From an uncultured Verrucomicrobiae bacterium (GTDB taxonomy: Bacteria > Verrucomicrobiota > Verrucomicrobiia > Chthoniobacterales > UBA10450), in assembly GCA_963815455.1 (NCBI GenBank), contig CAWFGO010000001.1, positions 1,440,001 through 1,504,000 on the forward strand: a DNA stretch of 64,000 nt, given 5' to 3'. The notes beneath the pieces were generated by a model. It was given only the letters and a program-made list of their open reading frames with translations. It was not told the DNA's origin and did not search any database. Positions 36,002 to 56,700 of this stretch are shown piece after piece (position 1 is the first letter of the stretch; each line of letters begins with the position of its first letter). Made by a program: the position numbers and the translations under genes.

Positions 36002-36022
36002 TTTTCTCGCAATGCATGCACC

Positions 36023-36115
36023 GTCATCCCGAGCGACGTCGAGGAATCCCGTTGCGTCAGCTTTAAGGTTTCGCCACGGGGTCCTTCGACTCCGCTCCGC
36101 TGCGCTCGGGATGAC
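36023..36115. repeat. GTCAT/ATGAC palindromic repeat, copy f
   Basis: GTCATCCCGAGCGACGTCGAGGAATCCCGT..ACGGGGTCCTTCGACTCC..GCTCGGGATGAC. Confidence 0.85.
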
Positions 36116-36182
36116 AGAAGGGGATTGCGCTCTGCTCCCGCCACGGCGAGCAGGCAGAACGACACACTGCATTAGCAAGGTA

Positions 36183-36969: not shown

Positions 36970-37069
36970 CCGCTGGCGCCGCCCGCGGCCGCTGTAGAGT
37001 CCGCGTCCTCAGCAGACGGGCGCCTTGACTGGATCCTCGCGGGCAACCGCGGTCAGCGCCCGCGGCTAC
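36967..37069. repeat. GTAG-type REP doublet
   Basis: GTAGCCGCTGGCGCCGCCCGCGG..CCGCGGTCAGCGCCCGCGGCTAC. Confidence 0.65.
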
Positions 37070-39783: not shown

Positions 39784-39899
39784 GTCACGACCAATCTTTC
39801 CGGTCGCGAGTGTACCGAAGGGTTATCGGGTGACCAATCGAATCCTCAAAGGATCCCTCGGAGGACCAATAATCGGCCCAAATATTCCGCACCCGTGCG

Positions 39900-40474
39900 G
39901 ACCCACGGGTAAGAGCAGCCCTGGTCGAATGCGCCTGGCGCATGGTCCGTTTCCAGCCGCAATATCCACCGGTCAAAAAGAGGCTGCCCGTTTTGGCCAA
40001 AGGGGCAAAGGCCACCGGAGGGCAACGCAAAAAAGCGATCGTGGCCGTGGCGCGCCGGCTGGCGATGGATTTGTGGCGAGTGCATACCGGACGGCTCACG
40101 GCGCAACAATTGGGTTTAAATATTAAATAAATGAGTTCGAGGGGAACAGGGATGAGCTAACTCGATTAACTCAAAGAGAACGCTTTGGAACGTGGCGTGT
40201 GTCCGGAGTCTAACCTGGTCCGATCCCCGAAAACGTTCGGGGCTCGCACCGTCGCTTTAGATTGGACCGCGCCCACGTTCCGCTTCAGTTGGACGGCATA
40301 AGTCACATTGCGCTGTCAGCAAAAGCATCGACATGCGCGGATAGGAGTATCAGCCGCTGAACAACTCAGTGCGCACCAGAGGCGGAAGCGTTCCAGACCA
40401 ACTCCAACCTCAAACCCCAACAAAACCATGTAATCGCCATCCCCAAAAACTCACCGTTGACACCCTTCATAGGG
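39900..40474 (+). mobile_element. 5'-truncated IS110/IS1111-type element inserted at the last attC
   Basis: Transposase C-terminus 'PRVRAALVECAWRMVRFQP..KKAIVAVARRLAMDLWR' to 40130; structured non-coding region; right end GTTGACACCCTTCATAGG resembles that of the 49-50 kb IS; abuts GTTAGAC. Confidence 0.85.
40135..40400 (+). ncRNA. putative bridge/seek RNA of the truncated IS
   Basis: Stems GGAACGTGG/CCACGTTCC, GTCC/GGAC, CCCCGAA/TTCGGGG, CTTC..GAAG; loop GTCTAACC complementary to flank; boundaries approximate. Confidence 0.65.
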
Positions 40475-40906
40475 GTTAGACGTTGTGTTGCTCGTGAAAT
40501 CTCGTGCGACATCGGGATGCCTTAACATAAGCGCAAACCAGACTGGGATCGAAGTGGTTCCGAGCGCAAGGCCCAGGGTAGACATTGAAGCAAGCACCCC
40601 GCCCTGCACGTGCACGCCCGACACCCCGAGGAAGAAGATGTCGCTGCAAACGGAGAGCGCGATGCCGACAGCAAGACAAAGACAGAGTCCGATGAGTGCA
40701 AGCCGGGCCCAATTCCGCGCGCGAAAGAGGAAATAACTCAGAGCTGCCAGCAACGCAGAAGCGACGAGAACAAGAACACTGCCAAGCTCGTCAGCCCAAC
40801 CGCGGGACGACCAGATGCCGTAGATGTACAGGTGTGCGCCGACCGCGACAACCGAGCCGCTTCCAACTGACGCCACTGCTCCTCCAATAATCGTTGGCCA
40901 ACGCAT
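40451..40906 (-). CDS. cassette 26: 4-TM membrane protein (3' end reads into IS)
   Basis: Hydrophobic ORF after attC core. Confidence 0.7.
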   Translation of the reverse strand: MRWPTIIGGAVASVGSGSVVAVGAHLYIYGIWSSRGWADELGSVLVLVASALLAALSYFLFRARNWARLALIGLCLCLAVGIALSVCSDIFFLGVSGVHVQGGVLASMSTLGLALGTTSIPVWFALMLRHPDVARDFTSNTTSNPYEGCQR

Positions 40907-40995
40907 TACGCTTTACGTCTAACGAGACAGAGATAAGCCACGGCAGGGTGTCGTGGCAAACACACTGAACGCATTTCGAAATGAAGCCGTTGGCT

Positions 40996-41454
40996 TCATC
41001 GATTTGTTAGATGGTCTGGTCTGAAGACGTGTCGGGTAAGAGAGCCGGTGAGACAAGTAGCACCGCCGACAAGTGCGGCTATGCCACAAAACTCCCAAGC
41101 ACCGTATGACCAAGAGCCATCGCCTGGATACGCTAGGAAAACGCCTGTCATGATGAGAAATCCTGCAGTCGCCCCGCAGGCGGTGCAAATGGGCCAGTGC
41201 CACAAAGAGGATGATGAGGGCACAAAGAGGTAAAGAGGAATCAGAACGAAAAGCCACACGGGAATGATAAAGTATGCCATGAACCAGCTCGTCGCTATCG
41301 TACTGCCGAACACTAAGCCCACATCCAGCGCGTGGCGCTGCCGAATCGCATCGACGAAGTAGGTGGACTCGAGAGCTACGAGCGTCACCACCCAGCCGGC
41401 AAGAACCGCAACAAGCGTTCCAACGAGCTGCTTGAAGATGGAGCGTGCGACCAT
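40996..41454 (-). CDS. cassette 25: membrane protein, identical to cassette 8
   Basis: ATG overlaps GTTAGATG; 4 TM. Confidence 0.75.
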   Translation of the reverse strand: MVARSIFKQLVGTLVAVLAGWVVTLVALESTYFVDAIRQRHALDVGLVFGSTIATSWFMAYFIIPVWLFVLIPLYLFVPSSSSLWHWPICTACGATAGFLIMTGVFLAYPGDGSWSYGAWEFCGIAALVGGATCLTGSLTRHVFRPDHLTNR

Positions 41455-41579
41455 CTAACGAGACCAAGCTCAGCGGCGGCTACCAGGAGCGCGGCTGAAA
41501 ATCTCTGGAACTGTTTTAATCATGACAAAATATGAACGCACAGCGGTCCGCCGTTCGCTCCATCGCATGGTTAGATGAT

Positions 41580-42011
41580 TTAATGATTCTCACCATGAAT
41601 TTCTTTTCCAAGTTTTTCTCCCAACGCACGGCCTTGCGCTGCCGAATCGACGAGCTTCTGATGCGTCTCAGTATCTGTAGAAACCAAATCGTCGCTCGCC
41701 GTAATCCCAAACGAATCGATGACAAGATCCTTCCGCCGATCCTCGAATAACAAAACTGTAGTGTAGCTCGATGTCGGACTCTCGGTCAGCGTAACGGAAT
41801 ATGGAAACTCGGCGGACACATCGAGTGACGAAATCTTTGCGTCTTTGACGGCAACCAAGACGCGCTTGTGTGCTGCAGCTGATATGATGAACCACGCGGG
41901 ATGCCCTTCCATCCGATGGGCCGCTGTCAATTTGAGATCACTGCGCTGATCGCCAGCGAGTGCGAATTGGCCGGTGATGACGAAGAGGAAAACGAGAACG
42001 CGCGCTATCAT
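41580..42011 (-). CDS. cassette 24: secreted hypothetical, identical to cassette 7
   Basis: Signal peptide; fills cassette. Confidence 0.75.
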   Translation of the reverse strand: MIARVLVFLFVITGQFALAGDQRSDLKLTAAHRMEGHPAWFIISAAAHKRVLVAVKDAKISSLDVSAEFPYSVTLTESPTSSYTTVLLFEDRRKDLVIDSFGITASDDLVSTDTETHQKLVDSAAQGRALGEKLGKEIHGENH

Positions 42012-42136
42012 CTAACGAGCACAAGCTCAGCCACCGCTGGCGGGAGCGAGCTTTGCTGCGGATTTTAGTGTTGAAGTCGTCGAAAATCTACTCATCGGAA
42101 CGGCCAGCGGTTGGCTGGAGCGTTTGGTTAGATCGG

Positions 42137-42442
42137 TTAGCGTCCTGGCTCTGCAATGACTTTCATGTTGTTGACCTCCACAATGACTTTCTTGTCGTTG
42201 ATCTGCCATTTCCCTTTGACGTGCTCTACCAGGTAGCCGTTCGGGCCACGAACGTCGACGTATATATAGTCGCTGGCCAATTGCTCATATGATAGGATTG
42301 CGGCCGAGGTCTTGGCGTGGATAACGCGGCTGATCTCGGCAATGTCAGTCGCTGAGATTCCGTGAAGTCGAGCCACTGTAGTCGCGCACGATGTGAGCAC
42401 CACTGATCCAATAATGGCCGCAACGCAGAGGGTGGTGTTCAC
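42137..42442 (-). CDS. cassette 23: putative lipoprotein
   Basis: Lipobox 'VLTSC'. Confidence 0.7.
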   Translation of the reverse strand: MNTTLCVAAIIGSVVLTSCATTVARLHGISATDIAEISRVIHAKTSAAILSYEQLASDYIYVDVRGPNGYLVEHVKGKWQINDKKVIVEVNNMKVIAEPGR

Positions 42443-42560
42443 GATCTAACGAGAACAAGATGAGCGACGGCGGACGAGGGCGCGCATCGCTCGGAGTGAG
42501 AGTGGGGAAGTCATCTTAAATGTGAACGCACAGCGGTCCGTCGTTCGCTCCATCGCATGG

Positions 42561-42845
42561 TTAGATCTTACGAGATAATTGCTCCTTCTTGTCGAGTCGT
42601 TCGGCAAGTTTCTCTTCGCGCCTCAGCCCCTTCTCCATACGGGGGAGAAACACGTTCTTCACCCAGTCTTTGTGAGGCGGCAGTTCTTTGCCGTTCCTGA
42701 ATTTGCTATCAAACAGAGGCCGAAAGCCGACCCAATGTGCATGCTTGCCGGTCTCAAGATACTCCTTCGCTTTAGCAATGGCTTGTTCGATCAACTTGAT
42801 GCGTTCAACGGGAGCCATTTGCTTCGTGTTCAGTCTAAACGCCAT
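42561..42845 (-). CDS. cassette 22: small basic hypothetical protein
   Basis: ORF fills cassette, stop in R'' box. Confidence 0.7.
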   Translation of the reverse strand: MAFRLNTKQMAPVERIKLIEQAIAKAKEYLETGKHAHWVGFRPLFDSKFRNGKELPPHKDWVKNVFLPRMEKGLRREEKLAERLDKKEQLSRKI

Positions 42846-42977
42846 AGCTTTGGATCTAACGAGAACAAGATGAGCGACGGCGGACGAGACCGTCCGTCGC
42901 TCGCGGTGAAAGTGTAGAAGTCATTTCAAAAGTGGAGCATGCAGCGGTCCGCCGTTCGCTCGATCGGATGGTTAGAT

Positions 42978-43334
42978 CTAGTGGTGCTGCCGGTCGAACT
43001 CGTGAAACTGCTTCGTGATATCAAAATAGACTTTATATTGTTTGCCACGCATTCGGAATGTGAAGCAATCGTAATATCTGTCCTCTTTCTCGTGCGCAAT
43101 TAAGGCGTGATCCTCGCCGACATCACTCACAGGCTGGCCAAACGCAAAGTGCTCAGGGAAATGCTTCTCCAGATACTGGCGCTCCCAGTCGTGATAATGC
43201 GCGTAATCGACCGGAACCACGACTGCCCTTGCCTCACTTGAGCCGTCTCGTGCGGATTCGCCCGCATGCACGGAGGTGACGCAGATATGCGAGAGAAGAG
43301 CCAAAGCGATTAAAAGAGCTGGAGTCGTGCGCAT
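42978..43334 (-). CDS. cassette 21: secreted hypothetical protein
   Basis: Signal peptide; C-terminal 'KVYFDIT'. Confidence 0.7.
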   Translation of the reverse strand: MRTTPALLIALALLSHICVTSVHAGESARDGSSEARAVVVPVDYAHYHDWERQYLEKHFPEHFAFGQPVSDVGEDHALIAHEKEDRYYDCFTFRMRGKQYKVYFDITKQFHEFDRQHH

Positions 43335-43455
43335 AAGATCTAACGAGACAGAAGTGAGCTACCGCCACCGAGGGCGAGCGGTGCTCGAAGTGAAGATGTT
43401 CTGGTCATATCAAAAAGGGATCGCACAGCGGGTGGCGGTTAGCTCGACTGATTGG

Positions 43456-43998
43456 TTAGGTCTTCTTCGGTTTGTGCAACATGGCTACTGCGTCCTTCGG
43501 CATGAAAGTCCAACCAATCAGTTTGCCGCGGTGAAAAACTCGCACAGCGATGAAGTCATCTGGAACGTTCCAAGGGCGCTTCTCTGGACGACTGGGAAAG
43601 TAGTCTGATTTGTCTGGATGTGCGGCTGAGGAAATCTCGACTGCGTCCGGGGGCAGCTTGGGATTTGGAGTGAACGGGTCATCCATCTTCTTTGCAGGTT
43701 CCCCCCACTGAAGCGTGTCATAACCTTTGAATACGCCACGCTCGTATGTGCGCACGAGATGATGGGTAACAGCTTTATCTTTGTGTTCGTTTTCTCTCTT
43801 TATCTCCGCTTCTTTTGCGGCGTCGTAATGAGGATCGCCTGGCTTCGGTAACTGCCAAGGTGTGGATGTCGCTGGCGGATCATTTCGCTTCAACTCGATG
43901 CTGTCCGGCGGCAATCTGTCATCGCCCACGACGGTTTGGGCGCACGCGTACTTGAGCAGTGCTGCGATGATGAGGGTGACGAAGAGTGTTGCTTGCAT
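43456..43998 (-). CDS. cassette 20: secreted Pro-rich hypothetical protein
   Basis: Signal peptide; stop in R'' box. Confidence 0.7.
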   Translation of the reverse strand: MQATLFVTLIIAALLKYACAQTVVGDDRLPPDSIELKRNDPPATSTPWQLPKPGDPHYDAAKEAEIKRENEHKDKAVTHHLVRTYERGVFKGYDTLQWGEPAKKMDDPFTPNPKLPPDAVEISSAAHPDKSDYFPSRPEKRPWNVPDDFIAVRVFHRGKLIGWTFMPKDAVAMLHKPKKT

Positions 43999-44113
43999 AG
44001 ACCTAACGAGAACAAGATGAGCCACCGCGCGAATTACGAGTGGCGTTCATAAGGATGGAAAATCTAGGCATACCGCTGGTCCGCGGTTGGCTCGATCGCT
44101 TGGTTAGACGATT

Positions 44114-44557
44114 TCATTGTGCGAGTGCGGCGACCGCCTCTTTCCTGACTTTCATCGCACGCTTCTTAGCCTCTGCTTCGCCATATTTGTTGACGGAAAA
44201 GACCCTCACCTTTCTGTTGCCACGACGGTCCGTGAAGTTGGCGCGCCAGAAGTCGTATGGTTTGCCTTTTGAGATTGTAGTGATGCGTGCAACCCCCACG
44301 ATACCAGAGGGCGACTTACGCCGCTCGACCTCGCAAGAATCGCGACGGGACATGCGAGGGAAAGCTTCGCGAATCTCTCGCCAGCATTTTTTCGCCTCTG
44401 CCAGCGCAGCGGCTTCGCTAGCGTATTTTTTGAACGGGAAATACTCTTGAAACATTGCGCCCTGTCGCAGGAGCTTTACGCGGTAACATGCGACGCTCTG
44501 GTCTGGATAAAACATGCGCTGCAAACCGCGAAATCCAGCGACCGTTGTAGTGGGCAT
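44114..44557 (-). CDS. cassette 19: AP2-domain DNA-binding protein
   Basis: 'SGIVGV..WRANF..KVRVFSVNKYGEAEAKKRAMKVR' plus a weaker N-terminal copy 'EYFPFKKYASEAAALAEAKKCW'. Confidence 0.7.
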   Translation of the reverse strand: MPTTTVAGFRGLQRMFYPDQSVACYRVKLLRQGAMFQEYFPFKKYASEAAALAEAKKCWREIREAFPRMSRRDSCEVERRKSPSGIVGVARITTISKGKPYDFWRANFTDRRGNRKVRVFSVNKYGEAEAKKRAMKVRKEAVAALAQ

Positions 44558-44639
44558 ATGCGCAATCGTCTAACGAGACGGAGCTGAGCCACCGCTGGCG
44601 ATGGCGAGCATGGCAGACACGAGGAACTGTTTCATAAAA

Positions 44640-45032
44640 TTATATGTGCGCATCGCGACGGCCGGCGGTTGGCTCGAGCGATTGGTTAGATGATGTCGAT
44701 GCGTCAGCACCAGCTTTTCTTTTCGCTTTCCACTCTCGCAGGAAGGCGATGAGAAACCCGAGCCCAAGAAACGAAGCGATGCAAATGACGACGATGGTGA
44801 TGGCGAATCGTGTTGCGGGAAGATAGCGGCCAACCAGACGACTAAGGCCGGACAGGATGATAAAAATAGTGAAATAAGCGCCTGCATATCGAAATAGCAT
44901 CTGCGCAACGGACTCTTTCTTATCATGGATCTCCACGATAGGACCTTCTGGCGAGCCATAGAGATCTTCGCGCTGCTCTCGACGCCAAAGCTCGAATCTA
45001 TAGCGAAAGCGCTCGATGAGTTCGCTCTTCAT
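44640..45032 (-). CDS. cassette 18: 2-TM membrane protein, reads into attC
   Basis: ATG at GTTAGATG. Confidence 0.7.
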   Translation of the reverse strand: MKSELIERFRYRFELWRREQREDLYGSPEGPIVEIHDKKESVAQMLFRYAGAYFTIFIILSGLSRLVGRYLPATRFAITIVVICIASFLGLGFLIAFLREWKAKRKAGADASTSSNQSLEPTAGRRDAHI

Positions 45033-45167
45033 CTAACGAGAACAAGATGAGCTACCGCTGTCTACAGCCAGCTCCGCTCGAAGTGAACATAGTTTAGTCA
45101 TGCAAAAATGTAAGCCCGTACGGGACAGCGGTTAGCTCCATCGTCTGGTTAGATGTCTTTGGTGTGC

Positions 45168-45491
45168 TCACACTTTGTCGCGGCGCAGACGATCCACTGC
45201 GGTGAAGCAACCGAAGTAGATAACACTGTAGAGTAAAGCAGGTGCTCCGAATGCGATAACTGTGCCTGCAGCGATAGACAAGGTACTCTCGCCTACCAGA
45301 TGAATGAATGCCGCGCCGGCGGAAAACCCCCAGTCGGAGAAAGGTGATAGTGCGCGACTGAGCGGTGTATCGGGGCCATTATGGTCGAAATTTCGCGCGG
45401 TCGTCCACGTGCCGACCATTAGCGCGGCGAGTGTGACGCAACCCAATACCACGCTCCACGCTACTCGACGAATTGGGAAACGCGCTGGCAT
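45168..45491 (-). CDS. cassette 17: membrane protein
   Basis: ATG at GTTAGATG; hydrophobic. Confidence 0.7.
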   Translation of the reverse strand: MPARFPIRRVAWSVVLGCVTLAALMVGTWTTARNFDHNGPDTPLSRALSPFSDWGFSAGAAFIHLVGESTLSIAAGTVIAFGAPALLYSVIYFGCFTAVDRLRRDKV

Positions 45492-45631
45492 CTAACGAGA
45501 ACAAGATGAGCGACGGCGGACGAGGGCGAGCGTCGCTCGGAGTGAAAGTGTAGAAGTCATCTCAAAAAGTGGAGCGTACAGCGGTCCGCCGTTCGCTCCA
45601 TCGCATGGTTAGGTCTGGTGTGAAGATAACA

Positions 45632-45958
45632 CTAGAACTCATAAGGCGGACCGGCGGCATGAACAAACGGCTTGCCGCGCGACTCCGGATCGTAGCCAGC
45701 AGTGATCGCCTGCTGAATGCACTCGACGAGTCGGCGATTGGGAAGGCGGAATCGCTGATGCTGCGGCATATCTCTATGGGATCGGTCGATGGAGAATTCT
45801 AGCAGTAATTGGCGTCGGCTTGCCTCTGTGGGCTCGACAAGAATTGCTAATCCACGTAAGCCGATTTGCTCGTGACGTGATGTGGCCCAAGTCGGTTGCC
45901 GGTGGACACGCCACCGATACTCATCATCTCCCACCGTGATTGTCCCCGACGATTTCAC
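45632..45958 (-). CDS. cassette 16: hypothetical protein
   Basis: AGGAG RBS + GTG; 'ITVGDDEYRWRV..IQQAITAGYDP'. Confidence 0.7.
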   Translation of the reverse strand: MKSSGTITVGDDEYRWRVHRQPTWATSRHEQIGLRGLAILVEPTEASRRQLLLEFSIDRSHRDMPQHQRFRLPNRRLVECIQQAITAGYDPESRGKPFVHAAGPPYEF

Positions 45959-46089
45959 GAAGCGCTCCTAAGACCTAACGAGAACAAGATGAGCGACGGC
46001 GGACGAGGCCGCGCGTCGCTTGGATTGAAAGTGTGGAAGTCATCTCCAATGTGAACCCACAGCGGTCCGGCGTTCGCTCCATCGCATGG

Positions 46090-46380
46090 TTAGACCTGTC
46101 GTGTGTTCGCATGTGTCCGCCTCAGCCTGATCGCTCTGACTAAGCTGAGAATAGTAAACCAAACGGCTACTTGCGCGAGCAGCATCAACGCCGCCTGCGG
46201 TGGACTCTGCGCGGGAATCCCCTCGGGCGGCAGGTGTGGAAGTGCGAGCAATATGCCTGGCATGTTGATGGCGAACACGAGCGGCGAGAACGCCGATTGC
46301 CAAGGCGCTTCCAGCAGCGCCGGCGCGCCACAAAGGAGCGCAATCCCGGCAGCGAGAATGAATCTTCGGGAGCGTGTCAC
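46090..46380 (-). CDS. cassette 15: membrane protein
   Basis: Stop in R'' box. Confidence 0.65.
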   Translation of the reverse strand: MTRSRRFILAAGIALLCGAPALLEAPWQSAFSPLVFAINMPGILLALPHLPPEGIPAQSPPQAALMLLAQVAVWFTILSLVRAIRLRRTHANTRQV

Positions 46381-46513
46381 AGCGTTCGGCTCGAGGTCTA
46401 ACGAGACGGAGCTCAGCCACCGCTGGCGGCAGCCAGCTTTGCTGCAAAGTTTAATGTTGAAGTCATGTGAAAGCTGGTCATCGGAACGGCCAGCGGTTGG
46501 CTGGAGCGATTGG

Positions 46514-46978
46514 TTAGATGTCTCCTATCTCGTCGGCGTGCTCCATTAAAGTCTTCGATGGGACGTCACCTTTGGAAAACAAGACTTTATCTTTTCGGAC
46601 GAGCGCGACACCTACAAATCGATTGTTTCCCTTGTATTCGATGTCTGGTGTCAGATCGCCCGGACCAACTTTGCTGTGCTCCGGAGGCACATGAATATAC
46701 ATATACCAAACCTGCACACCGCCGCGGAGGCGAATCCTACCGCTGCAATGCTGGCTGCTACAAATCACTCTCAAATGATCTAGGTCGCTCTTGGTGCTGA
46801 GAAATGGCGTGAGTCGCGACCAGAGGTCATACTCCTTGGTTACCGGATAACCGATAGCCTGGCGGCAGATGCGCTTAATCTGCGCGACATCACTCGATGA
46901 CAACGCTCGATCTGCTGCGTGCGAGGAGTGCGTTGCTGACGCCGAAAGCAGGAACATCAGGATGAGGTGCCGAAACAT
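46514..46978 (-). CDS. cassette 14: secreted hypothetical protein
   Basis: Signal peptide; ATG at GTTAGATG. Confidence 0.7.
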   Translation of the reverse strand: MFRHLILMFLLSASATHSSHAADRALSSSDVAQIKRICRQAIGYPVTKEYDLWSRLTPFLSTKSDLDHLRVICSSQHCSGRIRLRGGVQVWYMYIHVPPEHSKVGPGDLTPDIEYKGNNRFVGVALVRKDKVLFSKGDVPSKTLMEHADEIGDI

Positions 46979-47103
46979 CTAACGAGACAGAAGTGAGCTA
47001 CCGCCGCCGAGGGCGAGCGGTGCTCGAAGTGAAGAGGTTCTAGTCATGTAAAAATGTGAGCGCACGACGGGTGGCGGTTAGCTCGACTGATTGGTTAGAC
47101 GTC

Positions 47104-47502
47104 TCAGTCCGCGACATAGACTTTCTCAACAGGACCGTCCGGTGCCGCGAGAACACAATGGAGGAAATGTGGCCACGGACGGAAGCCAAGCTTCTTTCCC
47201 ATGTACACCTGGTAAGTAATATAGTACGCACCATGAAAATAAGGGTCCTTCGTGAAATCGGGAGGTCCAAGTAAAGCCGTGACCTCTGCTCGGCTGTGGC
47301 CGATCAGGATATGCTTATCGAGCAAGTCTGGAACCATAGTGCCGCGAAGCTTCGCATCGCCAGCGCGCCAAGCCTCCGCAGCAAACGGTTGACGCTTGTA
47401 AGAAAAATCAGTGACATAAACAAAGAGACCTCCGAGCAAAAGTCCAGCTCCGACCACAACAATTGCGATGACGATTGCAGGCGTCTTTAGGAGTTTGCGC
47501 AC
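47104..47502 (-). CDS. cassette 13: membrane-anchored SmpA/OmlA-like protein
   Basis: 'LIGHSRAEVTALLGPPD'. Confidence 0.6.
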   Translation of the reverse strand: MRKLLKTPAIVIAIVVVGAGLLLGGLFVYVTDFSYKRQPFAAEAWRAGDAKLRGTMVPDLLDKHILIGHSRAEVTALLGPPDFTKDPYFHGAYYITYQVYMGKKLGFRPWPHFLHCVLAAPDGPVEKVYVAD

Positions 47503-47671
47503 GAGGTTACGTCTAACGAGAACAAGATGAGCCACCACTGGCGAGAGCGCGCGTGGCGGCGGGATGTGAGGTTGGAGTCACGGAAAACTTGGGCGTACGC
47601 CGGCCAGTGGTTGGCTCCATCGCATGGTTAGGCGGTTCGCGTGGATGGCCCTGTGCATGCTAGTAAAATCT

Positions 47672-47908
47672 TCATCGGCGAAACTCCCACTTCCGGTGTG
47701 TAATAGTGATATCAGAAATGTCCTCGACTGAAAATGGAATGCTGTCAGAGCCGCGAACTTCTGTGATCGTGCCGCCCACGATGAGCACATCGTCGATGAT
47801 GCGGCCGTCGCGTAACGTGACCGCTGCTGTCTGATAACCCATGCCCGTCTCGCCCTGTTTGAGGAGAGATGGCGCCCACTTATCGGGCAGCTGTAGATGC
47901 GTGATCAT
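47672..47908 (-). CDS. cassette 12: small hypothetical protein
   Basis: 'GETGMGYQ..VTLRDGR'. Confidence 0.65.
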   Translation of the reverse strand: MITHLQLPDKWAPSLLKQGETGMGYQTAAVTLRDGRIIDDVLIVGGTITEVRGSDSIPFSVEDISDITITHRKWEFRR

Positions 47909-48049
47909 GACTGGCGTGCTTACCGCCTAACGAGAAAGAGCTGAGCTACCGCCACCTAGGGCGAGCTCTGCCCGAAGTGAGAGTGATTTACTCATCTGAA
48001 AAATGTGGACGCACGGCGGGTGGCGGTTAGCTCCAGCGATTGGTTAGGC

Positions 48050-48439
48050 CTATTGGGTGCGATGGTTCTTCGGGAGTCTGGGATCTATGGTCTCCTGAGG
48101 TTCTTCTCCGCGCAAGCGACGCTCGTGCGGCGTGAGAAAATCTCCCACAGGTGGTGTCGGCTGCTGAACGCGGTAAAAGCGAGGCTGGCCGGGGACCTCT
48201 TCTGATCGAGGCGTCGATGGCAGCGAGAAAGGATTGTACCGCGTAAGCCGGGAATAGTCGGAAGGCTGTTCCAGAGGTGACTCGCCGGGCATCGTGAATT
48301 GTGCAGTTTTCGGCCGTGGGCTACAGGCAAGAGAAACCAAAACAAGCAAGCCGCAAACAGAAACTGCGTATGAAGCAAAGTAACGCTGTTGATTGCACGA
48401 GTGATGATTGACTGTCATTTGCAAGAGCGCGCCTCGCAT
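48050..48439 (-). CDS. cassette 11: hypothetical, possible lipoprotein
   Basis: Fills cassette; 'SLAC'. Confidence 0.55.
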   Translation of the reverse strand: MRGALLQMTVNHHSCNQQRYFASYAVSVCGLLVLVSLACSPRPKTAQFTMPGESPLEQPSDYSRLTRYNPFSLPSTPRSEEVPGQPRFYRVQQPTPPVGDFLTPHERRLRGEEPQETIDPRLPKNHRTQ

Positions 48440-48571
48440 GGGCCTAACGAGACGGAGCTGAGCGACCGCCACCGGCGGCGAGCTTTGCTTTCGCTGGAAG
48501 TGTTTTAGTCATTTGAAATATGGACGCACAACGGGTGGCGGTTCGCTCGAGCGATTGGTTAGGCCCCTTGG

Positions 48572-48955
48572 TCATTTTGGCAGGGATAATTCTGCGACCC
48601 ATTTTCCATCCTGCTGTTCCCACGCTCTCGTAAAATGCCAGCTGTCACGCCGCGTTTTCTTCTCAACGTTATAATAATACACAACGCTCTCGCCTTGCTT
48701 CTTTAACTGGACGAGAAACGAAACAGGATAGCGCACTGGTCCACGCTCATCGAACGGGACGCAGAAGACACTTACGGCGCCATGCTCGTCAGACCTGCAT
48801 TCGGGGATGCCATCTCTGTGCAGGATAGCCGTGAAGAACTCGCCAGCCGAAATCATCGCCTTATCCCGGGATGGGTCTGTGGGGTCTTTGCCTCGGGAAG
48901 TCGAGCCTGCTATAACGAGGCAGGTGATAAACGCGAGTAATCGCAAAGTTCGCAT
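48572..48955 (-). CDS. cassette 10: secreted hypothetical protein
   Basis: Signal peptide. Confidence 0.7.
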   Translation of the reverse strand: MRTLRLLAFITCLVIAGSTSRGKDPTDPSRDKAMISAGEFFTAILHRDGIPECRSDEHGAVSVFCVPFDERGPVRYPVSFLVQLKKQGESVVYYYNVEKKTRRDSWHFTRAWEQQDGKWVAELSLPK

Positions 48956-49110
48956 AGGGCCTAACGAGAACAAGCTGAGCGACCGCCGCCGAGAGCGAGC
49001 GCGGCTTCAACTGAAACGGTTTTAATCATCTGAAATGTAAACACGCGCCGGGCGGCGGTTAGATGCCATGAAGGGTTGAAAAGCGTGGGCAAAACGGGCA
49101 CACGCGTTGT

Positions 49111-50439
49111 ATGAAAAACAAAACAACAACAACCCTTCATGGCGGAGAGAAGTTTAACAATTCAAGCGCCCCTGGCAATGGGGCAGTGAGGCGGGTGTGG
49201 AAGCTTGGGCTGGACGTGGACCTGCGTTTTATGGTGGTGGCGATCCAGTGTGGGCGGGGAACGATTGGGCCGGCGCGGAAGTATACTCGCGAGCAGTTGC
49301 TCGAGTGGGTGAAGCAAAAAGTGGGTGTAGGCGATGTGGTCTACGCGGTGTGGGAATGCTGCGGATTTGGTTATACGCTGCACGAGCAATTAACTCAAGC
49401 GGGAGCAAAGAGCGTCGGGACGACCCCGATGCGATTAAATTTGGAGCGGCGGCGGAAGAACGACCGGATGGATGCGCGCGAGTTGTGTGTGCGATTGAGC
49501 CGTTACCTGGATGGGCAGAGAGAGGAATTAAGACCAATCCGAATCCCGAGCCGGGGGGAGCAACAACGGCGGGAGCTGGGGCGGCAGCGGGAGTTTTGGA
49601 AACGCCAAGTGCGGCGGCTGGAGAATCACGGGCGAGCGCTGCGGATCGAGCACGAGCATGAGACGCTGGAGGCTGGGTGGGGCGGACCGCGGAAGTGGAA
49701 ACGAATCGGGCCGCAGTGCAGCGAGTTTGTGCGCGGGCAGCTTGAACCGGTCATGGAACAGATCCGAGCGGCCAAAGCGCAATTGGATCGGTTGACCCAG
49801 GAGATTGAAGCGCTGGTGAGGGAAGAAAAAATCCCGACGGGATTGGGTGCGCTAACGGTATCGCTGATCGACGGGGAGGTGTGCGATTGGCAACGCTTCA
49901 AGCATCGCAAAGCCGTGGGCAGTTACACTGGGTGTTGTCCTAGCGAATACAGTTCGGCCGGGATCCAGCGTTTTGGAAGCATCGACCGGCACGGCAACAA
50001 ACATTTGCGCACGCTCCTGGTCGAGGCGGTCTGGCGACTTCTTCGCTGGCAGCCTAACTGGCATGCTCGTCAGAAATATCTGGAGAAATTAAGGCACGGC
50101 GCCTCGCTGAAAAAGAAAATCGCAGTGGCCCTGGCCCGGCAACTGGCCATAGACATCTGGCGCTGGCGAACCGGCCGGGCCAGTGCCGCCGAACTGGGCT
50201 GGAGCCTGTCTAACATTCCAGGTGAAACCCTAACAAACAGATTTAACCCTCAGCTTTTACGAAACGGAACTTCCAAGCAAAGTTTGATTTGGCCGCAGGG
50301 TGGAACGCTGCTCGGCGCTGGAGCTGGTCCTTTGAAACGAAGGGATCATCGCTTAGATGGGGCGCGTTCCGCCCAAAGCGGCTTCCCAAAGTCAGGCACG
50401 ACATCATGGGCTCGCACAACAAAAGCGATGCTCGAATAG
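49111..50439 (+). CDS. IS110-family DEDD transposase/recombinase (homologous part ends ~50210)
   Basis: 'LGLDVD', 'WECCG', 'KNDRMDA', 'GCCPSEYSS', 'GNKHLRTLLVEA', 'VALARQL'. Confidence 0.92.
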   Translation: MKNKTTTTLHGGEKFNNSSAPGNGAVRRVWKLGLDVDLRFMVVAIQCGRGTIGPARKYTREQLLEWVKQKVGVGDVVYAVWECCGFGYTLHEQLTQAGAKSVGTTPMRLNLERRRKNDRMDARELCVRLSRYLDGQREELRPIRIPSRGEQQRRELGRQREFWKRQVRRLENHGRALRIEHEHETLEAGWGGPRKWKRIGPQCSEFVRGQLEPVMEQIRAAKAQLDRLTQEIEALVREEKIPTGLGALTVSLIDGEVCDWQRFKHRKAVGSYTGCCPSEYSSAGIQRFGSIDRHGNKHLRTLLVEAVWRLLRWQPNWHARQKYLEKLRHGASLKKKIAVALARQLAIDIWRWRTGRASAAELGWSLSNIPGETLTNRFNPQLLRNGTSKQSLIWPQGGTLLGAGAGPLKRRDHRLDGARSAQSGFPKSGTTSWARTTKAMLE

Positions 50440-50503
50440 GAGCTGGTGACTCGCCCCGGCGAGACAACACGACAGAGGGAAGCTGCACCCTGCGGATCAA
50501 ACC
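50280..50503 (+). ncRNA. putative bridge/seek RNA
   Basis: Closing stem GTTTGAT..CCGCAGGGTG / CACCCTGCGG.ATCAAAC; GGAACGC/GCGTTCC stem enclosing loop GCGCTGGAGCT; second domain GCTTCCC/GGGAAGC. Confidence 0.72.
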
Positions 50504-50616
50504 ACTAAAGATTGGAAAAACCGGGAAAGGAAAAAACTAAAGAAAAACAAACAATACCCGTTCCACGGTTGACAACCCTCATAGGCGCTCCAGCGCTTGG
50601 TTAGACCTATTCGTGA

Positions 50617-51159
50617 TCACGGGGTGTGCGCTGTCTTGGGCTTTACCGAGACGCTCTGAAACAAGCTTGAGCAAGGAGCGCCGCTCAGCGCCGCTTCCTT
50701 CGGGGAGAGATACATGACGACTCTCAAATCCGGCTTCATGAGAATGTAGTCGATCCGTTGAAACTGCGTCTTCAGAGCGACCACAAAAGAATGCGCTCGG
50801 CAATCACCGACCGAATAATCACGCTCCGAAATGAGCCTCGCGCCGGGCTCTCGTAACATATTGTCTTTGGCTTCGGCGAACGCACCGACAGCGCGAGTCT
50901 GCCACCATGCCTCTGGCATGACAGTGACTTTTGTTGAGATTGTGTCCGCTTTGCTCTGCCAGGCTTTCTCTTCGTAGGCGACGTTGCCCATCGGAGTCGG
51001 AAAATAGCCAGTGTTCGATGCTGTCTGCTTGAACGCGGGCGGTATCTTGAGCGTTAACTCGAACGGTGATTGCTGGAATGCTTCGGCTGGCGGCTTTTCA
51101 CCTGCCGCGAAAGCGGCAGCGGCAAAGGCGAGGAGTGTAATGGTGATGATCGATTTCAT
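50617..51159 (-). CDS. cassette 9: secreted hypothetical protein
   Basis: Signal peptide 'MKSIITITLLAFAAAAFA'. Confidence 0.75.
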   Translation of the reverse strand: MKSIITITLLAFAAAAFAAGEKPPAEAFQQSPFELTLKIPPAFKQTASNTGYFPTPMGNVAYEEKAWQSKADTISTKVTVMPEAWWQTRAVGAFAEAKDNMLREPGARLISERDYSVGDCRAHSFVVALKTQFQRIDYILMKPDLRVVMYLSPKEAALSGAPCSSLFQSVSVKPKTAHTP

Positions 51160-51240
51160 AGGTCTAACGAGACAGAGATAAGCCACGGCAGGGTGTCGTG
51201 GCAAACACACTGAACGCATTTCGAAATGGGGCCGTTGGCT

Positions 51241-51699
51241 TCATCGATTTGTTAGATGGTCTGGTCTGAAGACGTGTCGGGTAAGAGAGCCGGTGAGACA
51301 AGTAGCACCGCCGACAAGTGCGGCTATGCCACAAAACTCCCAAGCACCGTATGACCAAGAGCCATCGCCTGGATACGCTAGGAAAACGCCTGTCATGATG
51401 AGAAATCCTGCAGTCGCCCCGCAGGCGGTGCAAATGGGCCAGTGCCACAAAGAGGATGATGAGGGCACAAAGAGGTAAAGAGGAATCAGAACGAAAAGCC
51501 ACACGGGAATGATAAAGTATGCCATGAACCAGCTCGTCGCTATCGTACTGCCGAACACTAAGCCCACATCCAGCGCGTGGCGCTGCCGAATCGCATCGAC
51601 GAAGTAGGTGGACTCGAGAGCTACGAGCGTCACCACCCAGCCGGCAAGAACCGCAACAAGCGTTCCAACGAGCTGCTTGAAGATGGAGCGTGCGACCAT
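51241..51699 (-). CDS. cassette 8: membrane protein
   Basis: Identical protein to 40996..41454. Confidence 0.75.
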   Translation of the reverse strand: MVARSIFKQLVGTLVAVLAGWVVTLVALESTYFVDAIRQRHALDVGLVFGSTIATSWFMAYFIIPVWLFVLIPLYLFVPSSSSLWHWPICTACGATAGFLIMTGVFLAYPGDGSWSYGAWEFCGIAALVGGATCLTGSLTRHVFRPDHLTNR

Positions 51700-51824
51700 C
51701 TAACGAGACCAAGCTCAGCGGCGGCTACCAGGAGCGCGGCTGAAAATCTCTGGAACTGTTTTAATCATGACAAAATGTGAACGCACAGCGGTCCGCCGTT
51801 CGCTCCATCGCATGGTTAGATGAT

Positions 51825-52256
51825 TTAATGATTCTCACCATGAATTTCTTTTCCAAGTTTTTCTCCCAACGCACGGCCTTGCGCTGCCGAATCGACGAGC
51901 TTCTGATGCGTCTCAGTATCTGTAGAAACCAAATCGTCGCTCGCCGTAATCCCAAACGAATCGATGACAAGATCCTTCCGCCGATCCTCGAATAACAAAA
52001 CTGTAGTGTAGCTCGATGTCGGACTCTCGGTCAGCGTAACGGAATATGGAAACTCGGCGGACACATCGAGTGACGAAATCTTTGCGTCTTTGACGGCAAC
52101 CAAGACGCGCTTGTGTGCTGCAGCTGATATGATGAACCACGCGGGATGCCCTTCCATCCGATGGGCCGCTGTCAATTTGAGATCACTGCGCTGATCGCCA
52201 GCGAGTGCGAATTGGCCGGTGATGACGAAGAGGAAAACGAGAACGCGCGCTATCAT
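51825..52256 (-). CDS. cassette 7: secreted hypothetical protein
   Basis: Identical protein to 41580..42011. Confidence 0.75.
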   Translation of the reverse strand: MIARVLVFLFVITGQFALAGDQRSDLKLTAAHRMEGHPAWFIISAAAHKRVLVAVKDAKISSLDVSAEFPYSVTLTESPTSSYTTVLLFEDRRKDLVIDSFGITASDDLVSTDTETHQKLVDSAAQGRALGEKLGKEIHGENH

Positions 52257-52420
52257 CTAACGAGAAAGAGGTGAGCGATGGCGGCTGAGAGGGCGCGTGG
52301 CTTGCATGAGAAGGAGTCTAGCTACTCAAAGCGTGGGACACAAGGCCAGCCGCCATTCGCTCCACCGACTGGTTAGATGGTTCGCGTGGCATTACGAAGG
52401 ATAATGATAACGGACTCTCA

Positions 52421-52631
52421 TTAGAATGCCCACTTCCCCCAGAACTTCGACACAGCAGAATAACCATCAGCCAAAGCATACGTGAAACGCTGCCGATGAC
52501 GAAGCACAGAAAAGCATGCATAGATGACGATCAGCGGCGTGACCAAAACAAGAAGGACCGGCCATAAAATGAACTTCCAAACGAGGGTGAACACTGCCTC
52601 GACTACCGAACTCAGAGAGTGCCTCGATCAT
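52421..52631 (-). CDS. cassette 6: small membrane protein (one frameshift)
   Basis: 'MIEALSEF/VVEAVFTLVWKFILWPVLLVLVTPLIVIY..WGKWAF*' read by hand. Confidence 0.45.
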
Positions 52632-52761
52632 GGGTTATCGCGATAACGCTCTCTACATCTAACGAGACGGAGATAAGCTACGGCCACTGAGGACGAGCGT
52701 CGATCGAAGTGGAAGTGATTTAGTCATTTAAGCGTAAACGCGTAGCGGGTGGCCGTTAGCT

Positions 52762-53199
52762 TCATCGATTGGTTAGGCGGTTAAGGTTATCGCGAGCCCA
52801 ATGTCCTGGATCGAGTTCCAACGCGCGGCGGTATGACGACGCGGCATTCTGCGAGTCTCCCAGCTCGTTCTGCGCGTTGCCGAGCGCCGCGAGCACATCG
52901 GCAGAAAGATCAGAGGTGAGCGCTCTCTCAAAGCACGCAATAGCAAGCCGAGGCTCTCCGCGCTGACTATGCTCGAGGCCAAACTGGTAATGGACCTCAC
53001 GGACGTCTTCGGCGGTGAGCCAATCAGGGAGCGGCAGGGCGTAGCACGAATCACACACCGTGATCTCACCCACTGAAGTGTCAATGACTGCACACGGGCT
53101 TGCCGTCTTATCGATGACAAGCGATTCGCCGTCGTCAGTGGTCCAACGCTCCGCTGGCGCCTCTGGAATTTCAGCGCGACAGAGAGAACACGTGTGCAT
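52762..53199 (-). CDS. cassette 5: CxxC-CxxC (Zn-ribbon-like) + TPR protein
   Basis: 'CSLC', 'CDSC'; TPR 'AALGNAQNELGDSQNAASSYRRALELDP'. Confidence 0.7.
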   Translation of the reverse strand: MHTCSLCRAEIPEAPAERWTTDDGESLVIDKTASPCAVIDTSVGEITVCDSCYALPLPDWLTAEDVREVHYQFGLEHSQRGEPRLAIACFERALTSDLSADVLAALGNAQNELGDSQNAASSYRRALELDPGHWARDNLNRLTNR

Positions 53200-53341
53200 A
53201 TCGCCTAACGAGAATAAGCTGAGCGACCGCCACCGAGAGCGAGCGTGGCTTCGAGTGAAACTGTTTTGATCATCTGAAATGTGAACACGCGCCGGGTGGC
53301 GGTTAGCTCGAGCGATTGGTTAGATGAAGTGCGTTGCAAAC

Positions 53342-53681
53342 TCATTGTTTTGTCTCGGCTTCGTAGTGTTCCTGGCAAACTGGACAGTAAACTGCGACCT
53401 CTTTGTCGTGATAATCTGCCGAGCGAGTTCGCTGCTGAAAGTAAACAAGGCTGTTTGGGTATTTCCACTGAGCGCGATAATCTGCTTCACCGGGATCAAT
53501 GGTGCCGCGATCAAAATGACTCCAAGCATAGACGACAGCGCGTTTCAGCGGGACGTGATGAATGGAGCAGACACCCGAAGCCAACGACGCTTTGCGAACG
53601 GAGTCGAAGTAAACTTGATGTTGTGCCTCCGTCGCACACGATGCCAGGAGTACCGGCGAAACAGGCGACCGGGAACTTCAT
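53342..53681 (-). CDS. cassette 4: secreted Cys/His protein (frameshifted)
   Basis: ATG at GTTAGATG; later frame 'CSIHH..YPNS..YCPVC'. Confidence 0.55.
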
Positions 53682-53802
53682 CTAACGAGACGGAGCTGAG
53701 CGACGGCCACCGAGGGCGAGCGTGGCTCGAAGGGAAAATGTTTTATCAACTCAAAAGATGAGCGCAGAGCGGGTGGCCGTTCGCTCGAGCGATTTGTTAG
53801 AC

Positions 53803-54254
53803 GATTGGCCGTCCATGTGAAATGTGGTAGGAGACCGCAGCCCGAAGACCCATGCACGCGATGACGAGAAATGTCTTCAAATAGCGAGAGTCGCCTAAGG
53901 AATTCGTAAATAGCCAGTGTACGCTCCACGCAGAGAGCCGTCACCAAGGGGTGCTCGGAAGAAGATCGGCAGTGGATGAACAAAATAGCGCCACAACGTA
54001 AAAGTGAATAATACACATCAGTAATGCGGGCCAGGCACGACGGATGCGATAACGCAACAAAGCGATAAGGCGGCAGCAGCGAACAGAGCGATCTCAACGG
54101 AACTGGTGACGACGTATCGCCTCGCAAAGGAGCCGATGAGCGGACTGTAGGTGAATCGGGGCTGAACTGCGTGGGGTATCCACAACGCTTGCTGCACGAT
54201 GGCAATGAGCCAAAACGTGACTGTGAGAATTGTCGCGATGCGGATGATGCGCAT
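53803..54254 (-). CDS. cassette 3: membrane protein (probably frameshifted; end uncertain)
   Basis: Hydrophobic ORF 54018..54254 with hydrophobic continuation. Confidence 0.5.
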
Positions 54255-54384
54255 AAGGTCTAACGAGACGGAGCTCAGCCGCCGCTCTGGGAGCGAGGCT
54301 GCGCTCCAGTTGAGAATAGACTAATCAAAATCGACATCGACGCGCAACGCCAAAGAGCGGTTGGCTGGAGCGAGTTGTTAGACC

Positions 54385-54753
54385 TCATTTCAATATGCCG
54401 CGCTTTCTAAGGAACCAGCCGATGAAGAACATCAAGATCGCGCTCGCGAGTGAAGTGGGAACAATGAGCCTAAGTGGCATATGCTCTCCAAAATAACACA
54501 AGAGTCCGGAGATAAGGAGGCCGACAATGGCAATGGTCCCAAATAACGTCTTACTCACGGGTAAATGAAGAACTGCATGAAGGCAGTTATCGCTCCAACC
54601 AAGAAAGCCAACCCCAATGCACCAAACGAACTGCCTATAAGTCAGGCCGCGAATAAGCTCGGGCCGGTTGCGGGTCCAGAAGTAGGCAAAGGTGGTGCTG
54701 AGCATCAGCATCCCTCCAACGATAAGGTCCGAAATATTTAGCGGATGGCTCAT
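54385..54753 (-). CDS. cassette 2: 4-TM membrane protein
   Basis: Fills cassette. Confidence 0.72.
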   Translation of the reverse strand: MSHPLNISDLIVGGMLMLSTTFAYFWTRNRPELIRGLTYRQFVWCIGVGFLGWSDNCLHAVLHLPVSKTLFGTIAIVGLLISGLLCYFGEHMPLRLIVPTSLASAILMFFIGWFLRKRGILK

Positions 54754-54827
54754 GGGTCTAACGAGAACAAGATGAGCGACGGCGGACGAGAGCGCGCGTC
54801 GCTCGCAGTGGAAGGGTGGAAGTCATC

Positions 54828-55142
54828 TCAAAATGTGGATGTGGGGCGGTCCGCCGTTCGCTCCATCGCCTGGTTAGGCCTTCGGTGGCGAACCCGCTGC
54901 CCGTGTATGCAACCACCAAGATAAATGCACGCAATCACCGCGAACGCCGTCCCGAAAGAGTAGCGAGAGAGCAAGAAGCTCATAAGCGCAAGAGAGACAA
55001 ACAGCGCAATACTAAGAATCCAGAACTTGATCGAAAGCTCGTGGGTCTTCAGTGGAGGGCGTGGTCGGAGCGACTGGCCGCGGAGCCAGCGCAAAGAGAG
55101 AATCGCACCTGAGAGCACCAGCCCTGCGAGCAACCCGATCAC
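54828..55142 (-). CDS. cassette 1: membrane protein, reads into attC
   Basis: 3 hydrophobic segments; start may be ATG 55177 with a frameshift. Confidence 0.62.
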   Translation of the reverse strand: MIGLLAGLVLSGAILSLRWLRGQSLRPRPPLKTHELSIKFWILSIALFVSLALMSFLLSRYSFGTAFAVIACIYLGGCIHGQRVRHRRPNQAMERTADRPTSTF

Positions 55143-55179
55143 GGCGCATTTAATGAGGTCTGAGAAATCGGACGCATTG

Positions 55180-55236
55180 GCCTAACGAGAATTAGACGAA
55201 GGTTCGTAATTAAAGGCGAACATTTTTTCGTCTAAC
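55180..55236 (-). other. attI: attI site at the 3' end of intI
   Basis: Minus strand GTTAGACGAAAAAATGTTCGCCTTTAATTACGAACCTTCGTCTAATTCTC-GTTAGGC; a core site with no attC left half, preceding cassette 1. Confidence 0.75.
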
Positions 55237-56248
55237 TAGGTTGAGGGTTCGAAGGGGGGCGGCAGTCGACAGGGCTGCGTACCCCCAGGCCGGGTTTATC
55301 CAATACATGAGTGTAAATCATTGTGGTTGAGACATCTTTGTGTCCAAGCAGTGCCTGAACGGTGCGAATATCGGAGCCGGCCTGGAGCAAATGGGTGGCA
55401 AAACTGTGTCGAAAGGTATGACAACTGGCCGGTTTGGCAATCCCGGCCCGTTGAATCGCCAGTTTTACCGCGTTTTGGAGGTTTTTTTCCTGAACGTGAT
55501 GCCTGCGAATCTCTCCCGAGCGCGGGTCGAGCGAGAGCTTGGCGGCCGGGAACACATATTGCCACGCCCAAGAGCGATCGGCGTTGCGATATTTGCGGGC
55601 CAAGGCGAAAGGCAGGTAGACTCTGCCCCGGCCTGCGGCGAGGTCCTGCCGGTGCAGCGCTCGCACCCGGCCAAGGTGCAGGTGCAATTCTTCGCGTCCT
55701 GCTTCCGGCAGAAGGGTAACTCGATCGCGCTGGCCTTTCCCGTCGCGAACAATAATCCGGTTGAGCCCCAAATCCACATCCTTGACGCGCAAGCGCACGC
55801 ACTCCATCAGACGCAGTCCGCTGCCGTAGAGTAAAAGGGCCATGAGATGGTATTCGGCTCTGAGTTGCGCGAGCACTGCGTGCGCCTCCTCCGGGGTGAA
55901 GACGACTGGAATTTTGGCTGGCCGTTTGACCCGCTCCGCATCGATGAAGTCGAGTTTTGTATTCAGTACCTCCTGATAAAGGAACAACAGAGCGGACAGA
56001 GCCTGGTTCTGAGTGGACGCAGCCACATGTTTGTTTACGGCCAGATGAGTGAGGAAACGGGTAATCTCCTCTTCGCCCATTTCGTTGGGGTGGCGTTTGC
56101 GATGAAAGAGGATGTAACGCCGGATCCAATCTAGGTAGGCCTGCTCGGTGCGGATGCTGTAGTGTTTTACTCGCAATTGCCAGCGAACGCGGTCGAGCAA
56201 CTTGGGCGACGAAGCGACGGTGGCGGTGGAGGGCGGCACGGTCGCCAT
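55232..56248 (-). CDS. intI: integron integrase
   Basis: '[10 protein letters not shown]', '[10 protein letters not shown]', R-K-HxxR-H-Y residues, integron-specific insertion '[19 protein letters not shown]'. Confidence 0.97.
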
Positions 56249-56374: not shown

Positions 56375-56700
56375 CATCCGCCCTCGTGGCGACTACGGCG
56401 CGACAGGCAGGGCCGTGGCTACAGAAGAGAGGATCATTGCGGGCGACACCCGCCACGGCGGGCAGGCTCGCGCAACTAGACTAGGGAAAGGACACGGCGA
56501 CGCAGCGCCCCGCACACGGCGGGCAGGCTGTGGCTACAACAGATCGACGGTCGTAGACCGCCGCTACAGGAGAGGAAAACGATTGCGGGCGACACGCCCG
56601 CCTCTACACCGAGAGAAGGCACGGCGGCGGTGCGCCCCGCACACGGCGGGCAGGCTGTGGCTACAACAGATCGACGGTCGTAGACCGCCGCTACAGGGGG
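56375..56700. repeat. cluster of REP-like repeats upstream of intI, including a ~65-bp direct repeat
   Basis: CCCGCACACGGCGGGCAGGCTGTGGCTACAACAGATCGACGGTCGTAGACCGCCGCTACAGG at ~56508 and ~56636; several CTAC-ended hairpins. Confidence 0.8.

Follow-up and report, generated by a model that had tools for sequence, protein, structure and literature searches.

How the distal, leader-poor cassettes of long environmental integron arrays are translated is an open question, and attC recombination sites are mostly viewed as barriers. The question is raised by an integron in a 64,000-nucleotide (nt) stretch from an uncultured Verrucomicrobiae bacterium of the order Chthoniobacterales (contig CAWFGO010000001.1, positions 1,440,001 to 1,504,000; hereafter the window). 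An earlier note on this DNA had noticed short open reading frames (ORFs) in the attC sites, in frame with the TAG of the core, and had proposed that the site supplies a ribosome-delivery leader for whichever cassette lands downstream. Our sequence-evolution tests speak for that proposal, while its relay and ribosome-binding-site parts needed correction. We conclude that the attC ORF is probably a family-wide starter for the next gene, similar to the ORF-11 of class 1 integrons, in a host poor in Shine-Dalgarno (SD) sites, and that the attC frame is very likely translated in some role.

All parts of the integron were found on the minus strand, with intI pointing toward the cassette array. The integrase matched TIGR02249 with 454.5 bits (cut-off 265), and its five closest integrases in the genome collection (71–74% identity) were all from Chthoniobacterales or Verrucomicrobiota assemblies. 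Between 40,000 and 56,000 we found 26 cores, namely 25 attC and one attI. Each attC lies behind one gene and has the R'' (RYYYAAC) and R' (GTTRRRY) boxes, the L boxes and a hairpin.

The core search bore out an in-frame start codon in 24 of the 25 attC: 19 of these ORFs reach the core TAG and, as also claimed, five end at a TGA 5 codons earlier (sites 54260, 51700, 46398, 42012 and 41455). An ATG exactly 22 codons upstream was indeed the common arrangement, but in 17 of the 25 sites and not in 16, since the site at 44003, given before as a 15-codon variant, has ATGs at both 22 and 15 codons; the variants of 21, 16 and 26 codons were as described. The GTG (47513), the TTG (54260) and the ACG with an additional upstream ATG (42012) were recovered too, and the single off-frame site (53682) has no in-frame start and a TTG 1 nt off. 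Upstream stops on the mini-ORF start (ATGA at 40996; TGA-G-ATG at 54828) agreed with the ORF list. The five TAG-ATG junctions reported earlier all hold, and four more are present at 41455, 51700, 53682 and 52659 (ATG-TAG at 52659). The earlier note had missed that attI has the same arrangement and that an IS110 element interrupts the attC at 48961. The features are as follows.

55232–56248, minus strand: intI, integron integrase of 338 amino acids (aa), co-oriented with the array (ORF list, TIGR02249)
55182–55223, minus strand: attI, ORF of 13 codons that stops at the core TAG and starts (ATG) 8 nt past the intI stop, crossover G at 55186
40917–54880, minus strand: cassette array, 25 attC of one family, R'' to core 87–117 nt (core and box search)
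54758–54826, minus strand: attC mini-ORF, ATG, 22 codons, upstream ORF stop 1 nt ahead (TGA-G-ATG; ORF list)
54275–54337, minus strand: attC mini-ORF, ATG at 25 codons, TTG at 22, ends at TGA in L'
53680–53802, minus strand: attC, no in-frame start, TTG displaced by 1 nt
53205–53273, minus strand: attC mini-ORF, ATG, 22 codons
52659–52727, minus strand: attC mini-ORF, ATG, 22 codons
52257–52307, minus strand: attC mini-ORF, ATG, 16 codons
51715–51768, minus strand: attC mini-ORF, ATG, ends at TGA in L'
51164–51244, minus strand: short-type attC mini-ORF, ATG, 26 codons, ATGA overlap with the upstream stop (ORF list)
49063–50585 (ends approximate, by eye), plus strand: IS110-family element in the left arm of an attC, transposase ORF 49111–50439 (NF033542, 160.1 bits, cut-off 140)
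48961–49029, minus strand: attC mini-ORF, ATG, 22 codons, undamaged by the IS
48444–48512, minus strand: attC mini-ORF, ATG, 22 codons
47927–47995, minus strand: attC mini-ORF, ATG, 22 codons
47513–47581, minus strand: attC mini-ORF, GTG, 22 codons, in-frame ATG also 35 codons out
46979–47047, minus strand: attC mini-ORF, ATG, 22 codons, TAG-ATG junction
46413–46466, minus strand: attC mini-ORF, ATG, ends at TGA in L'
45975–46043, minus strand: attC mini-ORF, ATG, 22 codons
45492–45560, minus strand: attC mini-ORF, ATG, 22 codons, TAG-ATG junction
45033–45101, minus strand: attC mini-ORF, ATG, 22 codons, TAG-ATG junction
44570–44635, minus strand: attC mini-ORF, ATG, 21 codons
44003–44071, minus strand: attC mini-ORF with two ATGs, 22 and 15 codons out
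43340–43408, minus strand: attC mini-ORF, ATG, 22 codons
42856–42924, minus strand: attC mini-ORF, ATG, 22 codons
42446–42514, minus strand: attC mini-ORF, ATG, 22 codons
42027–42095, minus strand: attC mini-ORF, ATG at 27 codons, ACG at 22, ends at TGA in L'
41470–41523, minus strand: attC mini-ORF, ATG, ends at TGA in L'
40919–40999, minus strand: short-type attC mini-ORF, ATG, 26 codons, ATGA overlap with the upstream stop (ORF list)

Stop depletion and indel length modulo 3 in homologous attC, the tests proposed in the earlier note, both favour a maintained, translated frame. The homologue pool combined 77 host sites with 456 from fetched loci (from 515 matches, with 20 lacking a core and the rest dropped as partial or at ends), and the core read TAG in 523 of these 533 family sites, only GTTRR cores being admitted. 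R'' together with a TAG core was present in 375 unique sites, of which 323 had an ATG-led ORF in the TAG frame, against 20 and 26 in the other frames; 238 reach the TAG, 85 have an inner stop up to 7 codons earlier, 23 have only GTG or TTG, and 29 have no start. The same pattern was observed after dereplication at 70% (57 of 72 sites, against 4 and 9). Because the first set had been drawn with a loop-containing profile, the test was repeated on an independent set of metagenome contigs picked by a 20-letter right-end pattern alone, without loop information (of 169 matches, 16 lay too close to an end and 19 had no R'' that could be recognised; 133 unique sites were kept, and the first set contains none of them). 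There, the ATG-led ORF was in the TAG frame in 117 of 133 sites, against 2 and 6, and 112 long sites had 2 in-frame stops 24–63 nt upstream, against 58 and 70 in the other frames.

Compared with the expectation from column frequencies (n=189), stops were depleted in the TAG frame (3 against 54.0) and close to expectation in the others (64 against 57.0, and 117 against 115.8). Of 314 long sites, 240 have a central ATG; in 222 of these the distance from ATG to TAG is divisible by 3, whereas the distance from R'' to ATG is mixed (50 nt in 96 sites, 51 nt in 84). On the tree, non-triplet length changes were placed 15 times to the right and 54 times to the left of the ATG, with similar homopolymer counts on both sides. 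Single-step losses of the ATG numbered 24, of which 12 led to GTG and one to TTG (13 of 24 against 23% expected, p=0.001). The TT and ATGA columns changed 9–23 times, against 22–63 times in the surrounding loop, and are as stable as stem columns. Moreover, subfamilies with different loops and lengths have their ATG at 45, 48, 60, 63, 66, 69, 75, 78 or 87 nt, always in frame. The peptide showed no synonymous bias (300 against 304.9) and its substitutions were spread evenly over the codon positions (330, 334 and 325), so the frame is kept and the peptide is not.

The AUG sits not in the stem of the attC hairpin but in its terminal loop, which is large, weakly paired and variable. The earlier note had argued that most cassettes have no room for a ribosome-binding site of their own, which does not hold as worded, as this host hardly uses SD sites. 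Its 16S rRNA keeps the anti-SD tail; SD-like motifs precede 35 of 314 provisional host gene starts, against 9.5% in shuffles, and an SD site was found at 1% of 220 attC ATGs and an SD-like motif before 11 of 260 cassette genes. The 26 genes around the L3 match, a ribosomal-protein cluster whose gene names we presume, have A/U-rich leaders. A TTT within 8 nt of the start was present at 86% of the 220 attC ATGs and in 11 of those 26 genes; it was present in 4% of 221 cassette genes and at 8% of 2000 random ATGs (predicted unpaired, alongside this test: 0.61 against 0.51). Low SD use is reported for Verrucomicrobiales in the accessible text of PMC10798248. As the host barely uses SD sites, what the cassettes lack is rather an unstructured A/U-rich leader, which the attC loop would supply.

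We examined 306 cassettes, 260 of them with a dominant ORF, whose first start codon lies within 5, 10 and 20 nt of the TAG in 116, 140 and 198 cases, respectively. The core and a few following bases are predicted to pair with R'' in the RNA. As for the upstream genes of the 260, 87 stop at the TAA of R'', 106 stop 4–30 nt before it, and 18 stop at the loop ATG. The relay from the upstream gene that had been proposed thus fits this minority of 18; most upstream genes stop at least about 50 nt before the loop ATG, which would therefore mostly be loaded de novo. ATGs in the left arm (about 50 nt) open 168 ORFs, 141 of which end at the loop start or run on to the core or L' stop. Since such an ATG is missing in 101 of 269 long sites and, being stem-borne, changes freely to CTG, CTC and GTC, we keep a two-step relay through the left-arm ORF as a suggestion only.

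The attI was assigned from its position, its core (the single one at 55186) and its missing attC left arm, and attI-like sequence adjoins 16 other intI copies. Of these 17 attI (two of them identical), 15 have a start codon no more than 40 codons from the core TAG and in its frame, against 5 and 5 in the other frames, and 11 have an in-frame ATG, against 1 and 1. Among the loci with co-oriented intI, seven of eight bridge to the core TAG (G000 is the host genome):

Window: intI stop, 8 nt, ATG of the attI ORF
G000 C3: TAG-GTG junction
G000 C2 and L054: GTGA overlap
L052: ATGA overlap
L057: ATG of the attI ORF inside the intI end
L051: IntI itself terminates at the core TAG
L053: no attI ORF start

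In the first cassette of the window (54828–55177), the ATG 4 nt past the attI TAG opens just 12 codons, and its TGA overlaps the GTG of a 104-aa ORF; this is either a frameshift (real or from assembly) or another coupled mini-ORF.

From the anatomy, conservation and selection-like patterns of these sites we infer that the array is transcribed and that ribosomes would load at the SD-less T-run and ATG in the single-stranded, U-rich attC loop. They would translate about 16–27 codons along the right arm, melting the hairpin, and would stop at the core TAG, or at the TGA 15 nt earlier, usually 0–20 nt ahead of the next gene, which could then be started either by reinitiating ribosomes or by new ones landing on the unfolded region. 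The attI would serve the first cassette likewise, fed by the stop of a co-oriented intI. Because recombination crosses over (G/TT) within the final sense codon, an incoming cassette brings the stop, and each shuffle would rebuild the starter.

A wider reading, which we put forward tentatively, is that integrons of this family form a continuous ribosome track, from intI to the attI ORF and then to one SD-less loop start per attC, so that genes would be translatable at any position or in integrase-less clusters. Within it, the long loop may be kept as a landing pad and the recombination core may double as a selected stop codon. If true, a family of recombination sites would bear a second, sequence-level code for translation, which would explain why a long loop is conserved despite its expected cost to recombination efficiency, would link integron design to SD-less initiation, and would offer a compact, position-independent starter for shuffled genes.

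Several observations weigh against the starter role. No -1 or -4 overlaps occur at the main junction of TAG and next gene in the 260 cassettes, and 62 of the 260 genes begin more than 20 nt from the TAG. Reinitiation, which needs very short gaps according to the available part of PMC10666635, should be poor for such distant starts and for the 85 of 375 ORFs that stop early; structure opening or protection from Rho would then probably cover the distant starts. Removing the left arm lifts the predicted accessibility of the cassette start only from 0.40 to 0.45 (n=198). The tree-based stop test is weak (5 gains against 9.6 with the site fixed or 17.0 with the site free), and most raw nearest-neighbour gaps on the right-hand side of the ATG do not come in triplets (31 against 1, some of them compensating). 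With 18 of 240 sites frameshifted and 29 of 375 without a start, the constraint is soft. Many of the other-frame stops go back to individual positions passed on by descent (71 and 32 sequences), length variation on the left lies mainly in a single T-run, and counts are overstated because the attC sites are related. Finally, the set of 314 host starts is noisy and has no strong motif.

Other explanations account for parts of this pattern. In an anti-polarity role, which we judge unlikely, the translated ORF would shield naked attC RNA from Rho or nucleases, and the hand-over to the next start would be incidental. Early stops and distant starts would be tolerated, the loop has more C than G (0.31 against 0.16), and the host genome has two Rho-like genes (G000 C1:648413 and C1:1665898; E 3e-150 and 1e-136, both just below the curated cut-off); in class 1 integrons, untranslated 3' stretches reduce downstream mRNA, as the consulted excerpt of PMC11511950 describes. 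However, the left arm would stay untranslated in the long sites without a left-arm ATG, and attI ORFs share the end point though they have no hairpin. That the ORF has no function, an ancestral chance in-frame ATG (1 in 3) having been kept by descent, homogenisation and hairpin constraints, appears to us quite improbable. One type does dominate (ATG at 66 nt in 196 of 375 sites), TAG is the usual core, the synonymous test was flat and the site-fixed stop test was not significant; on the other side stand an ATG in the variable loop whose changes are GTG-biased, the left/right asymmetry of frameshifts, unrelated loops and attI that land in the same frame, and the free mutation, by contrast, of the left-arm ATG in the stem.

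Transcription might instead begin at or near the ATG and give each cassette its own transcript. Long arrays and integrase-less clusters would gain from internal promoters, and start and frame would be constrained in the same way if the mini-ORF were leaderless, but the attC ATG profile has no TANNNT at -12 to -7, and a sigma-70 scan, which included Pc for the array, found 6 sites against 7.4 expected, at chance level, and none at loop ATGs; we regard this explanation as very unlikely. Least credible of all is that the peptides act themselves, as a stalling leader or small effectors: many have Arg/Ser-rich tails, yet these are dictated by the stem, and substitutions are even across codon positions without synonymous excess. 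The starter for the next gene remains our preferred reading.

In the host genome, about a dozen clusters together hold 77 sites of the window attC family (of 86 profile matches, 79 passed the filters and 2 of those lacked a core). Many of the clusters have no integrase, and further intI copies or fragments occur elsewhere in the genome. Within the host's family, 33 of 36 genomes carry this attC family, as do 3 of 24 genomes from the order's other families, a tally that includes three unpublished genomes, which entered no other result; no match was found in plasmids. We also considered whether the arrangement is a general attC property, and rejected this. Of 36 heuristic sites in other phyla, just 7 had an in-frame ATG (with 4 of these ORFs ending at a stop). 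In other Verrucomicrobiota, 60 noisy candidates, 35 of them with a TGG core, came from 10 of 40 loci and included 6 with the ATG; short attC with GTTGG cores prevail there. The heuristic finder gives false positives and counts some sites once per strand.

Some further observations concern the array and its surroundings. A two-cassette block (genes of 152 and 143 aa) is present as a near-exact duplicate at 40917–42011 and 51162–52256 with different neighbours, which is consistent with IntI-mediated recombination. The stretch 52256–52659 begins, after the core, with an ORF of one codon (ATG-TAG) and lacks a long ORF close to its 5' end; it may be a gene-poor cassette. In the L089 array one short cassette start occurs six times, about 300 nt from the previous site, which suggests a repeated short cassette. 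The IS110-family element, opposite to the cassettes in the window and with the loop ATG untouched, occupies the same left-arm attC position at five genome places (window 49063–50585; G000 C1:1710992, C2:712536, C3:791732 and C6:21570), and we take it to resemble the attC-targeting IS1111 group. A remnant at the far end of the array (39785–40480) has a short ORF that resembles, by eye, the C-terminus of an IS110 transposase. One gene at 36012–37028, presumably a class D beta-lactamase or related transpeptidase by its motifs, is split over two frames, and the intI copies on C2 and C3 are frameshifted; these hint at assembly indel errors or decay, which may explain the off-frame attC at 53682. 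Finally, an 85-nt direct repeat lies upstream of intI (56486–56697), and short intergenic palindromic repeats occur across the window (22037, 25513, 29087, 33181, 33903, 36095 and 60006).

Short attC ORFs that aid translation were already known, and their conservation across a whole attC family appears to be new: our literature searches, with subscription journals and supplements outside them, turned up neither a paper that describes an ORF conserved throughout an attC family nor one on the attC of Chthoniobacterales. In the "reverse" integrons of Treponema the integrase runs in the cassette direction, as here; going by their description only, no conserved loop start is reported for them.

The other systems are compared from the available portions of the papers cited. 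The closest is ORF-11 of the class 1 attI1 (also ORF-17 and ORF-18; Hanau-Bercot 2002 as cited in PMC8876359 and PMC4670013), a short ORF across the crossover whose stop comes from positions 3–5 of the incoming core (TAG), whose peptide sequence is unimportant and which serves genes without their own initiation region. The present ORF likewise spans the crossover, takes its stop from the incoming core and appears to have a dispensable peptide. ORF-11, however, has an SD and serves the first cassette only, whereas the start of the present family is SD-less and occurs in attC and attI, at every array position, and intI can end on it. With an SD-poor host and no SD of its own, the attC ORF would work like ORF-11 but is not ORF-11.

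Short ORFs in class 1 attC (Jacquier 2009 as cited) relieve the hairpin barrier and favour translation of the next cassette (PMC8876359, PMC11511950); they are described for a few resistance cassettes, are called "anecdotal" (PMC11511950) and are entered by reinitiation from an upstream stop. Here, in contrast, the ORF is a trait of the whole family, with the main start about 50 nt inside, in the loop, and the 87- and 96-nt subfamilies match the class 1 geometry. The VCR sites of sedentary chromosomal integrons in Vibrio, compared by description only, also belong to one homogeneous attC family and have a terminal structure that is long and variable, but no conserved loop start is reported in the sections consulted (PMC8946536). 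Long loops lower replicative recombination (PMC8946536), a cost that fits a second function for the attC loop.

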